A stretch of DNA of 23,275 nucleotides. Origin: PVC group bacterium (GTDB taxonomy: Bacteria > Auribacterota > Erginobacteria > Erginobacterales > Erginobacteraceae). The stretch is from positions 1 through 23,275 of the forward strand of contig JAZDIV010000024.1 in NCBI GenBank assembly GCA_043804695.1. The letters run 5' to 3'. Below are positions 6,001 through 15,000 of this stretch, one piece after another. The number at the start of each line of letters is the position of its first letter. Positions within the stretch are counted from its first letter, which is position 1. The position numbers are program-made.

Positions 6001-9000
6001 ATCCGGCGTCCCCGGTGCTCCCGGCCTTCCAGCGCCAGGAAGAATAGTCCCGGGAACAGCCAGAGCCCGTAGCTGTAACGGGTCAGGTAGGCCAGGCCGA
6101 CCACCGCCCCGGCCGCCGCCGGGAAGAACCGGGAAGCGGGGCGGCATCGGTAGAGACAGTAGAAAAGAAGAAAAAAGAGGAAGACGGTGAACGTCACCGG
6201 GCTTCCGTTGATGCTCGCGCGGAGCATGACCGGGTTGATGCAGTAAAGCAGGATCGCCGCCCCGGCTATGCGGTTATCAAAGAAGGCGCGGGAGAAAAAC
6301 CAGATCCAGGGCACGGCTGTCCAGAAGAAGATGATGGACACCGCCGCCAGGGTCAGATCATGCGGCCCCGCCAGCTTGATGGCGGCCGCCAGAACCAGAA
6401 TATAGAGAGGGGGGTGGGTGAGCTCGGGATGGTGGAGAATATCCGGATTGAAGCGGAGGCTGACCGGCCGGATGAAGCCGGTGGTGAACCCGTCTCCCTC
6501 CGCGACCCGGCGGGCGATCTGGCCGAGGTCGAGGGTGACGATGGCGTCGCTCACGTTCAGGCCCTGTTTCGGGCTGAACTGGTAGTGAAAGTAAAGCCAC
6601 CAGACCGCTGCCCCGATCAGGCAAGCAGCTATAGGAATTAAAATCGTAAACTTTTTTAGAGGGGCGGCCATTAATAGAATTCTAATGTGTCGGTGGGAAG
6701 AAATGCAGAATCAGGATGATCGACACCACCCAGAGCAGAACATCGATCAGCAGTGCCCGATCGGTGAAAAGGGTGCGCCCCGGTTCTCCCCCCCCCGCTT
6801 TTCGATGGACCAGATACAGGTAGCGGAAGATCCCGTAGAGGACAAAGGGAATGCTGTAGTAAAGCCGCGGGCTGACCTCGATGCGGGTACGGGGATAAAG
6901 CGTGTACAGGGCGTAGGCCATCACCGTGGACGACGTGACGACCGCGATCATCTGGTCCAGAAGATCGGCGGAATATTCAGTCAGGATCTCCCGGTGATCG
7001 GAAGCGTTGTTTCCCAGCAGGACCAGTTCATGGCGCCGTTTGCACAGCGCCAGGAAAAGGGCGAGGAGAAAGGTGCAGATGAGAAGCCACTCTGAAATCG
7101 GGACATCGATCGCCACCCCGCCGGCCAGGGCCCGGAGAATGAAGCCGAACGAAATGGCCAGCACATCCACGATGACAATCCGCTTGAGCAGGAGAGAGTA
7201 GGAGCCCATCAGCAGCAGGTAGGCAGCCGCGATCAGTCCCAGGTTCGGACCGATCATGAAGGCCCCGGCCAGCGCCGCCAGTGAAGAAACGAGCGCGGCC
7301 GCGAGGGCCGGCCCTGGTGAAAGCCGGCCGGCCGCGATCGGGCGGCCGCTCTTCTCCCGATGCCGGCGGTCCTCCTCGATGTCAACCACGTCATTTGTCA
7401 GGTAGACCGCTCCCGAGAGGAGGGAGAAGATGACAAAGACGATCAGGGTGGTCAGAACCTTGCCGCTGCTGGTGAACTGGCGGGCGAAGATCAGGGCCGC
7501 AAAGACAAAGGTGTTCTTCAGCCATTGCCGTGGCCGCATCGAGAGAAGGATACTCTTAATCATGATCTTCTTTTGCCGTATTTATTGAAGGAGTATTGCG
7601 CCCGATGTTTTTTCGTTATAATGGAGCAGAGCGGGTTCGAACCGCCGACCCCCACGTTGCGAACGTGGTGCTCTCCCAGCTGAGCTACTGCCCCATATTA
7701 TTTTTTGGCTCTGCCGAAAAATAATAATTTACGTCTCCTTCAGTTTATTAGCGGCCTCGGTCAGCGCCTGGACAAATTCGTCGATATGGTCTTCGAAGAT
7801 CACCAGGCGAACCCGGTGATGGGTGTCCTCCGTCCGCTCGTACTTCGACTCAACGATGTCGATGAACCGGGTTCCGCTGGCCTGTTCTTTTAGGTTGAAA
7901 AAATAAGTTCTCTTCCCGCAGGCGATCTTCTGGCTGTATATCTCTTCGGTAGCGATGGCACCCACCTCCCTTTTATTTTTTCTGCTTATTATTTTTCTGC
8001 GAGCAGAAAAATAATAATTGTTGATGAAATCAATATGTTCATGCTTCGGAATTTCAAAAAATGTCGTAGCGGTAGCCTTCAGAGGCTGTCCGATAATTCA
8101 GATTTTAGGCATTTTAGAGGTCATTGCGAGGAGTGCAGCGACGAAGCAATCTCATCATTTTGAATAAGAGGTGGTTATGAATGAAAAAATAGATTGCTTC
8201 GCCCCTTCGGGGCTCGCAATGACATTTTAGGGTTTACCGGACAGCCTCTGAAGCCCTGCACTATGAGATTATTAAAATTCCGAAACAGCAACAGTGTACG
8301 CGATATGAAACAAAAATCCCGCATCCCGCATCCTGTATCTTGCATCCCGCATCCCGTATCTTGCATCCTGCATCCCGTATCTTGCATCTTGCATCCTGCA
8401 TCCCGTATCTTGTATCTTGAATCCCGCATCATATACTAAAGGAGTAACACCTTGAACGCCGATTTCCAAGACACCGTCAAGGCCAACGACAAGTTCAAAG
8501 ACTTCGTCCTTCCCCTGGACCGGCTGGAAATGATCCGGGACGCGATGCCCTTCGTCCACAAATCCGGCCTGATCCTCTTCTCGGAAGGATATTACCACCC
8601 GCCCGGCAAACTGATCTGCAACATCATCTATGTCCCCGACCCGAAGGGGGAGAAGGAGATCTTCGGTCTTCCCTATCGTTCCATCATCAAGATGGAAGGG
8701 GAGACCGGCGAGGAGGTGTGGATCAATTTCGAGGCCCAGCTCGAGCGCTACCGGGAACTGGCCCCGGAAGCGCAGGTCAATAAACCTCCCTTCGCGAAGT
8801 ACAAGTGCCAGTTCGATCTGGGGGACATGATCGGCTTCGTCGATCACCGCCGCTCGCTCCGGAAAGCGCGGGAACTTTCTCCCGAGATAGACGACTCCAT
8901 CAAAAAGGTGGCCGGGATGCTCGACATCGATTCCGGCACGATCGGGGTGACTGGTTCGCTGGCGCTCGGCAACCTGAAGACCGCCCATGACTTCGACCTC

Positions 9001-12000: not shown

Positions 12001-15000
12001 ATGATTGATCCTTGCTATACGAAAATTACGTTCGATGTTCGATGTTCGACGTTCGATGTTCAGTTTTTTCCATCACTCCACCACTCCATCACTCCGGAAC
12101 CCGGTCTGAACTTCGTTCAGGCCGGGTTCTCCCTCCCCTCCTCCAGCTGCGTCTGGAGGTGGGGGACGCCGGCGTGGAACCGCTCCAGTTCGATATCGAA
12201 CCCGTCCACGACTGCGACGGCGGGGGTTTTCACCCCGTCCTTGATCAGGTTGACCAGTCTCCCCTTGATGTGGAGCCGGAGCCCTTCCTTGAACTCTCCC
12301 CTGACCGCGCCGTCGTACATGATCAGTTGGATGTCATCGGCCTTCTCACCGTCGATATAGACGTTCTCCAGCCCGAGCACGACCGGGACATAGAGGGAGT
12401 GCCGGTTGTCGGCCACCGTCCCGTAAACCTCGATCGGTTCCCTGACCAGTTCCACCGCGCAGTCGCGGACCGGGGCGTCCAGGAGGTTGCGGTACACGTA
12501 GAAGGTGCAGACCTCCTCCCGGTCGACGTAGATCTTGAGCGGCCAGAACTTTCCGTACTCAACCACCTGCCGCTCCGGCTGGCTGTAAATGATGGACCAG
12601 AGCTTGTGGACCGTCTTCATGTTCTCTTCCGGGGTGCCGAAGAAGACCAGGTCGATATCGGCCCCCTGCCGCCCCAGCGCCGAGGAGCCGGTGATCCCCA
12701 GCCGATCCATGGGCACCTCGAAGAGGTCGCTGGTCATCTCCACCACCTCTTTGACCCGGGGATAATGCTCCATCACGTATCGGAGCGCCGACCAATCGTT
12801 GAAATATCCGGCAAAACTCTCCCGGGGAAAGGCGACCTGGTACTCGGCCAGGATCAGGTGGTGGGAATCGGGCGGCAGGTCGGGGAAGAGACGGTAGAGC
12901 TTTTTGATCTGGTCCTTGTGAGAGACATAGACCTCCTCGCCGTTCCGCACCTCCTTGACGATACTGGCGTAGCGGCGCCCGTGGATATCCTTTTCTCCGT
13001 CCGGGTCCGGGTAATAGATCAGCTTCCCGACCACGGTGTCATCCGGATGCCAGTATCCTTCCGTGTACACGAAACTCCCGGCCTTGCTCATCAGGTAGGT
13101 GGTATCGAGCGGCCCCAGCGTCAGCTCGGACATCGGCCTGAGAATCTCTCCGATCACTTCATCAAAACGATCCATGCTCTTTCTCCCTTATCCCCTCGCC
13201 GCGCCCCCTTTCTGAACAGACGATTGGATGTGATTGAATAGAAATTGTGGCCCCTACCGCAGCCCCATTTAAAAGCAAATATCGAATATCGAATAATGAA
13301 TATCGAACTTCGAAGGTCGCTTTGGCTGGGCTCGTTCACTTCGATATTCGGTGTTCGATATTCTGCGGTTCGTTATTCGCTTTTTCCTCCGCCCCGGCCT
13401 CAACTTTAGGCACTTTTCTTTTCCTTCCCAACATAGTCCAGGAAATCCAGTTCGTCGGCGGACAGTCCTTTTTCGTAAACGAAGCTCGAGGCCAGGGACG
13501 ACGCGAAGACCGCCTTCAGGTAAGCATCCGGGACCCGCTTCATCAGGGTCTTCATCCCCACCCGGCGGAGCAGGACGGCGGGGCAGTGCCTCCGGAGGAC
13601 GGACTGGCAGAGATCCCGGTCAGCAAAGAGCGCGGAGGAATAAACCTTGTCGGTGACCCGGTTGATCGTGTCGCTCAGCAGGTCGGAGAGGACCGAGAGG
13701 GGGCGGCCGGAGGATTGGTGCTCCCGCCAGAGGACCCGGAACTCGGCCGAGGCGTTCCGCCGGATGATCTCGATGATCTCGGCGATGTATTTCTGCCGGA
13801 AAACCGGCTCGCGGCCGCCGGGCGCGATCGTCATCAGCCGGGCGAACTCGCCGTCCTCCAGCGCCAGGGACGCCAGCACCTCCAGGGAGGACGAGGTCAC
13901 CCCTCCTTTGTTGGCGGAGGCGTCCTTGAAAAGAATGATCCCCTTCTCCTCCAGGCGGAGGCGCGCCTCCTGGGTGATGAAGAGGTTGGCGCCCTCGACG
14001 ATGATCCGGGCCCGGGGCACCCCCTTTTCATTGAAAAACTCCTGCCAGTTTCCGATCCCGATCGCCCGGGGACGGCCGCCGCAGGGGATGAAAAGGTCGG
14101 CGGAGAGGCCCGGGTAGAAGTGGAAACGGTTCCGGAAGTCGGTCCCGTTGAGTACGATCGTGCCGTCGGGGAGATGGACGTCCCGCTCCCCCACCCCCAC
14201 GAAGAAACCCCGGCGGGAAAGCTTTTTCCGGTTAAAGTACCGGACGGTCAGCCGGCGCCGCGCCAGCCGCTTCAGTTCCTTCCGGTCCAACCCTTTCGGG
14301 TCGTAGATAACGCCGCTCCCGTCGATAACCGCCAGGGTCCGGTCGCGGGAGATCAGGATCTCGTTGCTCCCCAGGTCGCCGTCGGGACCGCCGGTCTGGA
14401 ACTTGGTGATCTTCTCCTCCTTCATGTCCAGCGCCCGCAGGGTATCCATCACGTACTGGTGGATCCCCCGGGTGGTCATCCCGTAGGTGTCATGGGGGAT
14501 TCCTCCCAGTTCCGGCTTTTTGCCGGTGGTGAACGCCCGCCAGTAGCGGTAGCCCCGGTAGCGGGCGTGCATGGCCGCCCAGTCCATCAGGTGGGCCGTC
14601 CCCTCGTCCGGCCCCAGGAAGAGAATCTCCTCCTTCCCGTACAGGTCCACGATCTCGGGGTGCGGGAGGAGGAGATCGAGCAGCCCGTCGATGTAGTGCC
14701 GGAAAAGGCTCTCCCCCGCCGCGCGGTAATCAAGGCTCAAAAGGATCGTCCCCTTGGCGCCCCCTTCCGGGATGTCCTTGTTCTTGCTCTGCTGGGTCTG
14801 GGCCAGGTTATAGTTCTCGTCGAAGATGAAATCGGAGTTGAGATCGTAGTCGTTCTGGGTGGGCGAGCGGACCAGGCGGATCCCCCCCCGGGCGATGTCC
14901 CGGAAACGGATGTGGAAACCCCGGAACCCCTTGCCGATCAGGAAGAAGATCCCGTACGGTTTTTCGGGGTAATCAACCGGGTTGAGGAAGGACGGGTCGA

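Follow-up and report, generated by a model that had tools for sequence, protein, structure and literature searches.

Two intact genes at positions 8452..13175 of the window, by which we mean the whole stretch of 23,275 nucleotides that was analysed, encode related proteins of 342 and 352 aa (32% identity over 294 residues), and they raise the question of which family they belong to and what its copies do in a genome that holds several of them (Table 1). A preliminary description had counted six members in the source genome, and a search of 29,815 six-frame ORFs bore this out, with no seventh member (next match E 0.076). Pairwise identity among the six spans 28-54%, a wider range than the 29-38% given earlier. 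The reported absence of database rows also held, since neither window protein reaches the cut-off of a Pfam model (best PF01909, E 0.06) and none of the six paralogues has an NCBIfam row; the group E protein shows a weak PF01909 match at residues 149-198.

Table 1. Family genes, protein domains and neighbouring genes in the window
Feature	Position	Strand	Remarks
Family member, orthologue group A, 342 aa	8452..9480	+	TTG start downstream of AAGGAG site
Sm-like/SH3-type beta barrel, N-terminal, about residues 23-132 of group A protein	8518..8847	+	Invariant D30, G46, Y47
Pol-beta-type nucleotidyltransferase domain, about residues 138-244 of group A protein	8863..9183	+	
C-terminal OB fold, residues 248-342 of group A protein	9193..9477	+	Conserved Y295-x-G-x-x-R300-G301
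gdhA, Glu/Leu/Phe/Val dehydrogenase	9843..11090	+	Near family in 7 genomes, f1, f2 and f4 only
Cupin_2 protein	11529..11966	+	Neighbour of family in 2 genomes
Family member, orthologue group E, 352 aa	12117..13175	-	
Large NAD-specific glutamate dehydrogenase	13406..16324	-	Directly upstream of group E gene; 8 genomes of f1-f4

The predicted structure (pLDDT 96.6) agrees with the earlier reading of a Pol-beta-type nucleotidyltransferase (NTase) core followed by an OB fold, for which a pLDDT of 96 and OB matches at Z 8-9 had been given. The best OB matches were the PolC OB domain (Z 8.7, rmsd 2.6 over 81), MCM (8.4), RPA (8.1), SSB (8.1) and LysRS (7.8), a tie between ssDNA-binding and anticodon-binding types. 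To these two domains we add a probable Sm-like/SH3-type barrel at the N-terminus, whose matches were all weak (Lsm4 at Z 4.0 with rmsd 2.2 over 57, Lsm5 at 3.6 and Tudor at 3.5). When a model of residues 1-246 was compared with known structures, the top 37 of 50 matches were NTase-fold proteins aligned to residues 138-244, individually middling (best Z 5.7) and with no single family standing out. Neither this model nor the whole one had a Foldseek match at E<=0.001, and a PDB sequence search returned a single weak match (2rff, E 0.18).

The NTase domain of the group A protein contains G165-x-T-G-S169, D180, D182, E212-x-G-x-x-W217 and C230. Seven of these positions (G165, G168, S169, D180, D182, W217 and C230) are identical in 135/135 family members and E212 in 134/135, while D30, G46 and Y47 are likewise present in all 135. 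Membership of the Pol-beta NTase superfamily calls for hG[GS] and, after it, [DE]h[DE]h (PMC2794190); the family carries both, and nucleotidyl transfer is its predicted activity. The third catalytic carboxylate was not found on the distal strand, where residues 228-235 read ICPFF with the invariant C230, and the third Asp appears to be replaced; the C-for-D equivalence was judged by eye, the hhalign alignment being shifted at that strand. E212 could serve as a substitute third carboxylate. Any kinase-like job would be one by analogy only; the family has no Pfam match to the P-loop kinase fold of deoxynucleoside and thymidine kinases (PF01712, PF00265), its own fold being that of an NTase.

Although the family had been described as unnamed, it is, judging from profile comparisons, a full-length divergent subfamily of COG1665, an NTase-fold group without a known reaction that was classified as group XVI and described as an uncharacterized protein that is conserved among archaea (PMC2794190). 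Alignment by hhalign with 120 canonical COG1665 proteins, including those of Methanocaldococcus, Methanolobus and Methylocaldum, gave 99.3% over 265 columns, and with a Bathyarchaeia-rich group 99.8% over 288 columns; the link to COG1665 was made by way of the published alignment and named homologues. The family HMM recovered 57 of the 120 canonical proteins at E<=1e-3 (database size 1e9). Conversely, the canonical HMM found only the six paralogues at E<=1 among the 29,815 ORFs of the source genome (four of them at E<1e-3), and an archaeal COG1665 profile matched 23/23 genomes that carry the family, with two marginal matches among the 56 phylum genomes that do not. The COG1665 motif, G[VI][ST]GS-(5-6)-SD[IVL]D[FL]V[VI]YG, reads GVTGSLALG..HDFDLIFYG in the window protein, which has lost the Ser that precedes the first Asp. 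COG1665 is now labelled predicted nucleotidyltransferase, and JGI gives that label to 8/98 close members.

Both groups consist of proteins of 310-370 aa that are homologous over all three domains and contain the G[VI][TS]GS..DxD motif. They differ in that identity is only about 19%, canonical members have a longer helical insert while the subfamily has ExGxxW and CPFF, and one bacterial lineage keeps the subfamily as a stable set of 4-10 paralogues in each genome. The third-Asp strand, FD[LI]L in 89/120 canonical proteins, is CPFF in the subfamily, which is why we file it as divergent rather than canonical; of the 22 Bathyarchaeia-type relatives, too, most lack FD[LI]L. With PolX, TUTases, poly(A) polymerase, the archaeal CCA enzyme, CD-NTases, RelA/SpoT and ANT(2'') the family shares the core fold and GS/DxD, but these named enzymes score at most Z 5.7 against it, none combines Sm-like and OB domains, and the family apparently does without the third carboxylate. 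As described before, Atlas neighbours carry PF01909 (20-39% of their members, at 0.98), and clusters lacking PF01909/PF18765 gave no usable match. Literature searches on COG1665 and on an NTase joined to an OB fold returned nothing relevant. We regard the COG1665 identity, together with a single ancient expansion, as highly probable.

Our profile search reproduced the distribution given earlier, with 4-10 matches in each of 23 of the 79 phylum genomes and none in the other 56, all of them incomplete assemblies. The 45 representatives matched at 1e-30 were likewise recovered, but looser thresholds give 123 (1e-10) and 363 (1e-3), where the search reaches archaeal COG1665-type proteins. We show that the family had already multiplied into about 8-9 orthologue groups when the two carrier lineages separated, and that purifying selection has maintained these groups from then on: the gene tree contains orthologue groups common to both lineages, and dN/dS is 0.16-0.19 in 3/3 orthologue pairs (0.17 and 0.16 for the group A and group E genes against G018). 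No holder of RNA data was listed for the region, which says nothing about expression. Group A was present in 22/23 carriers and group E in 19, counted in a sample of loci. Since the expansion predates the split, its co-occurrence with gene losses counts as roughly one event, in keeping with the earlier caution that the carriers may be one clade; RpoB trees need 2-3 changes for the carrier pattern and do not reject a single clade (p-AU 0.217).

The losses themselves were largely as reported. PurA (PF00709) was found in 1/23 carriers, as a partial match, against 54/56 non-carriers. The wider statement that carriers lack purine synthesis holds phylum-wide for purA, the one gene tested on that scale, and does not extend to PurE in every carrier, a strong match being present in G016 (1/5 carriers tested). 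Moreover, the 4-6 PRTase-family genes per genome in 5/5 carriers tested mean that purA loss needs no new enzyme. No ribonucleotide reductase (RNR) of class I/II, class III or monomeric class II was found in 17/23 carriers, as claimed, and no hidden monomeric class II enzyme in any of the 23, while four of the 56 non-carriers lacked both RNR Pfam models at our threshold, where five had been given. Among the 17 RNR-less carriers, ThyX and thymidine kinase (TK) are absent (ThyX is present in 47/56 non-carriers), a ThyA-like protein appears only as a weak partial match in two, and deoxynucleoside kinase (dNK) occurs in two, so that 15/17 have neither TK nor dNK. Of five carriers tested, 5/5 contain Tmk, Gmk and Adk, 0/5 the adenosine-specific kinase PF04008, a candidate for the missing kinase, and 3/5 a second ComEC within a pdp-comEC-comEA-nuclease-deoB cluster. 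According to PMC10121223, Ureaplasma, Borreliella and one Buchnera likewise live without RNR by deoxynucleoside salvage, and RNR-less Escherichia coli grew on deoxynucleosides once given dNK; the RNR-less carriers differ in their 2-4 Mb genomes, in spanning two class-level lineages and in mostly lacking both kinases. These 15 genomes of 2-4 Mb, in which no RNR, ThyX, TK or dNK is recognisable, pose a concrete question as to the source of their dNTPs.

Because the gap in carriers is one of deoxynucleotides, the salvage role suggested earlier is strengthened in a narrower form. We favour substrate-specific small-molecule transferases with a part in deoxynucleotide scavenging, a leading but minority guess to which we give a probability of about one in three. 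Each paralogue would be a transferase that depends on Mg and NTP and has a small acceptor of its own. The GS/DxD metal and triphosphate site is intact in these soluble three-domain proteins (no membrane-length hydrophobic stretch occurs in any of the 135 members), and the acceptor may sit in the cleft between the three domains, held by D30, E212, W217, C230 and R300, which would stand in for the usual third Asp. Imported deoxynucleosides, or the ends of short imported DNA, might then be turned into dNMP or dNTP, a scavenging arm for cells without RNR, thymidylate synthase, TK or dNK. Orthologue group D fits this reading, occurring in 14/17 RNR-less carriers (11 at >=52% identity and 3 at 43-47%) and 0/6 RNR-positive ones. 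Against it, the six RNR-positive carriers retain 4-8 copies, G021 and G022 (96-97% complete) lack both RNR and group D, and G022 also lacks dNK. The pyrophosphorolysis of nucleic acid proposed earlier is not favoured over other chemistry, given that the third Asp is apparently replaced and that the closest outside clade has the family in a small-molecule operon; a literature search linking pyrophosphorolysis to salvage returned nothing. A more specific proposal, which we consider unlikely, is that the paralogues form a new class of base-specific enzymes on the Pol-beta fold that scavenge deoxynucleotides and allow these anaerobes, two lineages at class level, to do without RNR, thymidylate synthase, TK and dNK; they would be nucleoside phospho- or pyrophosphotransferases, or else template-free PPi-dependent oligonucleotide phosphorylases. 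If true, COG1665 would gain its first function, and any filling of the deoxynucleotide gap by the family would be a new route into DNA precursors.

That sister clade is also an argument for a different substrate. Its members, which keep the subfamily signature residues in 10-12 of 12 rows, lie beside a DHQS-like cyclase and an AsnB-type amidotransferase, each in 6/8 informative loci, in an operon with Rpe, RpiB, a GDPD or PhnP-like hydrolase and a methyltransferase. The paralogues might accordingly take sugar, polyol or cyclitol units and either activate them as NDP derivatives or pass them on by phosphodiester transfer, in the making of envelope glycans or of some metabolite; LicD-type NTases, for comparison, move phospho-substituents onto glycans (PMC2794190). 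On this view a single scavenging lineage would have lost nucleotide synthesis by coincidence, and its dNMPs would come from imported DNA digested by exonucleases. Such digestion by ordinary exonucleases, which yields dNMP from imported ssDNA, would close the deoxynucleotide gap without a new enzyme and speaks against salvage. A raw tally of carrier neighbours includes many glycan genes (GT2, GT4, flippase, LpxA-like, GMD and GlmU-like), but none was found to be common to both carrier lineages, and glycan enzymes usually vary between genera, unlike these stable orthologue groups. The source genome contains a single DHQS-like gene but nothing that matches AsnB, so the operon was not transferred with the family. 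We hold this reading to be possible but doubtful; if it applied, the family would mark an undescribed biosynthetic operon, and literature searches, judged from their listings, returned nothing on a cyclase-AsnB-NTase operon or a methanopterin link for COG1665.

Action on RNA, with each paralogue activating or modifying tRNA or rRNA bases or adding to 3' ends on a target of its own that the OB and Sm-like domains would read, appears quite unlikely. Sm-like and OB folds commonly bind nucleic acid, the anticodon-binding OB folds of aminoacyl-tRNA synthetases score within 1 Z of the best, and in f17 a B-A pair lies 3' of the CCA-adding enzyme gene in the four genomes examined; in G052 the pair shares the reading frame of that gene. 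That adjacency is confined to f17, however, the sister-clade context is metabolic, and RNA-tailing NTases need, as established for Pol-beta-fold polymerases, the third carboxylate that this family apparently lacks. Replacement of the CCA enzyme was ruled out by its presence in 5/5 carriers tested. Protein-modifying or signalling NTases, whether GlnD/GlnE-like regulators of, for example, glutamate dehydrogenase or second-messenger and defence enzymes, are very unlikely. In 7-8 genomes of one order the family genes have two glutamate dehydrogenases as flanking neighbours, but f16/f17 show no such neighbour. The weak fold matches include CD-NTases and RelA/SpoT, and the variable regions around two actinobacterial single-copy relatives resemble defence islands; the 8-9 groups have been retained vertically and in synteny, which is not how defence genes behave, and a search of viral contigs with group A patterns yielded 37 candidate stretches, none of which was confirmed as a relative.

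Whatever acceptors these candidate transferases use, the subfamily with its rebuilt active site, kept in two classes as 8-9 stable orthologue groups, forms a natural panel of substrate variants. Their surroundings in the carriers are mixed, most of the 86 neighbours scanned being unrelated to nucleotides. The three copies earlier placed around gdhA were found in G018, G021 and G025, while the window has two. Of the triplet reported upstream of an acetyltransferase and the NupC nucleoside transporter, the NupC part holds in six genomes of families f1 and f4 only; the adjacent gene encodes an LpxA-like acyltransferase, and the source genome has no triplet. In two f17 genomes the triplet has genes for a purine permease and a nucleoside phosphorylase nearby, which, like NupC, fits a salvage role.

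When every six-frame ORF of the genome (29,815) was searched, six members of the family came up, as previously described, and no seventh; the two in the window enclose gdhA and a cupin gene. Pairwise identities among the six span 28-54% (44-54% for the three longer ones) instead of the 29-38% first reported, and, as the preliminary description had it, the two window proteins have no Pfam match that passes the cut-off, and NCBIfam has no match for any of the six. Three ortholog pairs shared with genome G018 have dN/dS of 0.16-0.19, and we therefore regard these as maintained genes. 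The window gdhA was probably replaced, since it shares only 58% identity with its counterpart next to these genes in G018, versus 84-88% for the adjoining family genes.

Coordinates of the family genes and other features (G, genome; C, contig; L, locus)
Feature	Location	Strand	Remarks
7-bp-unit arrays	window 724-844, 8316-8430, 12030-12061, 19098-19204		between or at start of genes; first lengthens 5' end of ORF 729-2975 (inflated)
Uridine-kinase-family gene	window 4345-4992	-	
DUF3276/PUR-type single-strand-binding protein gene	window 7729-7965	-	divergent from group A gene
Family gene, group A	window 8452-9480	+	342 aa
gdhA	window 9843-11090		
Family gene, group E	window 12117-13175	-	352 aa
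Probable acquired island	window 16823-23275		DUF4258/DUF2283 toxin-antitoxin-like pair, RHH protein, ParB-like gene; from 20,000, 39-40% GC and two unannotated ORFs
Short divergent thymidylate-synthase-like protein	G000:C31:24360-24737		this genome; weak partial Pfam match
pdp - large second ComEC - comEA (x1-2) - MBL hydrolase - unknown ORF - deoB	L175:8112-18343, L176:9547-19514, L177:8062-18906		then pnp or adenosine deaminase; in carrier groups f1 and f16
Groups D and B3 of f1	L148:5962-6999		
CCA-adding enzyme and paralogue B	L053:5957-8584		G052
Actinobacterial relatives	L035:9992-14187, L036:9977-14252		

AlphaFold modelled the group A protein with high confidence (pLDDT 96.6, pTM 0.93). 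In structure comparisons, residues 248-342 of the group A protein matched OB folds (PolC Z 8.7, MCM 8.4, RPA 8.1, SSB 8.1, LysRS 7.8), in agreement with the Z of 8-9 reported earlier, with ssDNA-binding and anticodon-binding types tied. The N-terminal part, folded separately without the OB fold, gave pLDDT 94.4; for residues 138-244, the 37 top-ranking matches out of 50 are all Pol-beta nucleotidyltransferases, with Z reaching 5.7, as the weak matches noted for the middle domain had indicated, and for residues 23-132 there are weak matches to Lsm4, Lsm5 and a Tudor domain (Z 4.0-3.5). Among 135 members from fetched loci of all 23 carrier genomes (a subset of the profile matches), D30, G46, Y47, G165, G168, S169, D180, D182, W217, C230 and P271 are invariant, while E212, R300 and G301 occur in 134; on this conservation, all paralogue groups look catalytically intact. 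None of the 135 has a membrane-length hydrophobic stretch.

The family had been called unnamed, which no longer holds. Searching representative proteins returned 45 (the number already reported), 123 and 363 at 1e-30, 1e-10 and 1e-3, extending into archaeal proteins of 320-360 aa that can be aligned with the family across 288 columns (hhalign, 99.8%) and whose profile matches all 23 carriers and only two marginal places in the 56 non-carriers. Close relatives of one archaeal-type protein (P0227) in Methanocaldococcus, Methanolobus and Methylocaldum bear the motifs that the supplement of PMC2794190 gives for COG1665 (group XVI), and the family aligns with 120 canonical COG1665-type proteins over 265 columns (99.3%). 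On these full-length alignments and motifs, the family belongs to COG1665 as a divergent subfamily. PMC2794190 lists the role of COG1665 as unknown; a literature search found no paper under that name. The canonical distal strand reads FD[LI]L in 89 of 120 proteins, whereas the family has CPFF, its Cys appearing by eye to take the place of the canonical Asp, and the ExGxxW motif is new in the family. Distant relatives, as previously noted, occur in archaea and, at two loci, in actinobacteria. One distant member, P0160, carries a C-terminal SAM methyltransferase fusion.

A profile built from the six paralogues gave 4-10 matches in each of 23 phylum genomes out of 79 and had none in the remaining 56, exactly as first described. 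PurA likewise stood at 1 of 23 carriers (a partial match) versus 54 of 56 non-carriers; RNR, searched with class III, class I/II and monomeric class II models, is absent from 17 of 23 carriers, as stated, and from four rather than five of the 56. In RpoB trees covering 51 and 30 of the 79 genomes, carriers fall into two or three groups, and a single carrier clade was not rejected (p-AU 0.217). The gene tree has about 8-9 ortholog groups, of which A, B, C, D, E and one triplet group each contain both carrier lineages (order f1-f4 and f16/f17); in the remaining triplet groups the tree gives no clear branching between the two lineages. Both lineages keep the B-A pair and the triplet as tandem arrays. 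Judged from these shared groups, the expansion took place once, before the lineages split, so that its correlation with the loss of purA and RNR amounts to about one event, as the preliminary description had cautioned. More weight attaches to the fact that every ortholog group has been retained for so long, which implies that each does a separate job. In groups D and B3, the f1 members stand unusually near to those of G046 in f16 (G046:C145; 75% for D), which suggests transfer between the lineages.

Ribonucleotide salvage in carriers looks ordinary: all five tested have 4-6 PRTase-family genes, Gmk and Adk, with PyrF in two and a clear PurE match in one. The gap is in deoxynucleotides. None of the 17 RNR-less carriers (G000, G018-G024, G046-G054) has ThyX, found in 47 of 56 non-carriers, or thymidine kinase; dNK occurs in two, a weak partial ThyA-like match in two, and Tmk in all five carriers tested. 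This absence is a puzzle whatever the family does. A second ComEC lies inside a pdp/comEA/nuclease/deoB cluster in three of five carriers tested. Group D occurs in 14 of 17 RNR-less carriers (not G000, G021 or G022) and none of six RNR-positive ones, a contrast resting on few events. In all five carriers having them, nrdD and thyX are adjacent (G013:C144, G014:C9, G015:C110, G016:C14, G017:C405) and may move as one module. Against a salvage role of the family, common exonucleases can cut imported ssDNA to dNMP, and therefore no new enzyme is strictly needed. Escherichia coli without RNR was made viable by added dNK, according to a passage of PMC10121223. Passages on the phylum in PMC9324843 refer to nucleoside transporters and to DNA degradation as a prediction, and contain no ribonucleotide, thymidylate or nucleotidyltransferase terms.

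The family is thus a real, well-defined feature, a variant of a known, uncharacterised family, expanded once and conserved; its paralogues are most likely a set of Mg/NTP-dependent transferases that act on small acceptors, each with its own substrate specificity. The nucleotide salvage proposed earlier gains from the deoxynucleotide gap, and we give deoxynucleotide scavenging a probability of roughly one in three; against it, the six RNR-positive carriers retain 4-8 copies each. Most telling against salvage is the nearest outside clade (10 metagenome loci, eight with neighbours, two of these near-identical), which favours sugar or cyclitol activation, itself a doubtful reading. Its operon encodes a DHQS-like sugar-phosphate cyclase and an AsnB-type amidotransferase (each at 6 of 8 loci), Rpe, RpiB, a GDPD or PhnP-like hydrolase and a methyltransferase, and points to a small ring-shaped acceptor, not a nucleic-acid polymer; the clade shares with the family D30, G46, H49, DxD, E212, G214, W217, R220, C230, F232, Y235, R300 and G301. 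Our genome has no AsnB match and one DHQS-like gene, and therefore does not run that pathway. Few of the 86 scanned neighbour proteins of carrier family genes relate to nucleotides (NupC in six genomes of f1/f4, permease plus phosphorylase in two of f17, deaminase-type enzymes and one adenosine-specific kinase); glycan genes are at least as frequent, and no neighbour of either kind occurs in both lineages. RNA modification seems unlikely, and protein modification or signalling quite improbable. The rebuilt active site, together with the still unexplained source of dNTPs, makes the family directly testable.

The outside-clade operon recurs at L181-L188, mostly on contigs of 32-40% GC, and seems to encode an undescribed cyclitol pathway. 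The single-copy relatives from Mycolicibacterium moriokaense and Actinoplanes sp. are found in variable regions that resemble islands, possibly defence islands, beside unannotated ORFs, an OGG-like gene and a domain that by eye resembles a cyclase type. No stop codon ends the CCA-adding enzyme frame of G052 before it enters paralogue B, which retains its own ribosome site and ATG; the two are separate genes in G049, G050 and G051, and the arrangement is either a fusion or a lost stop.
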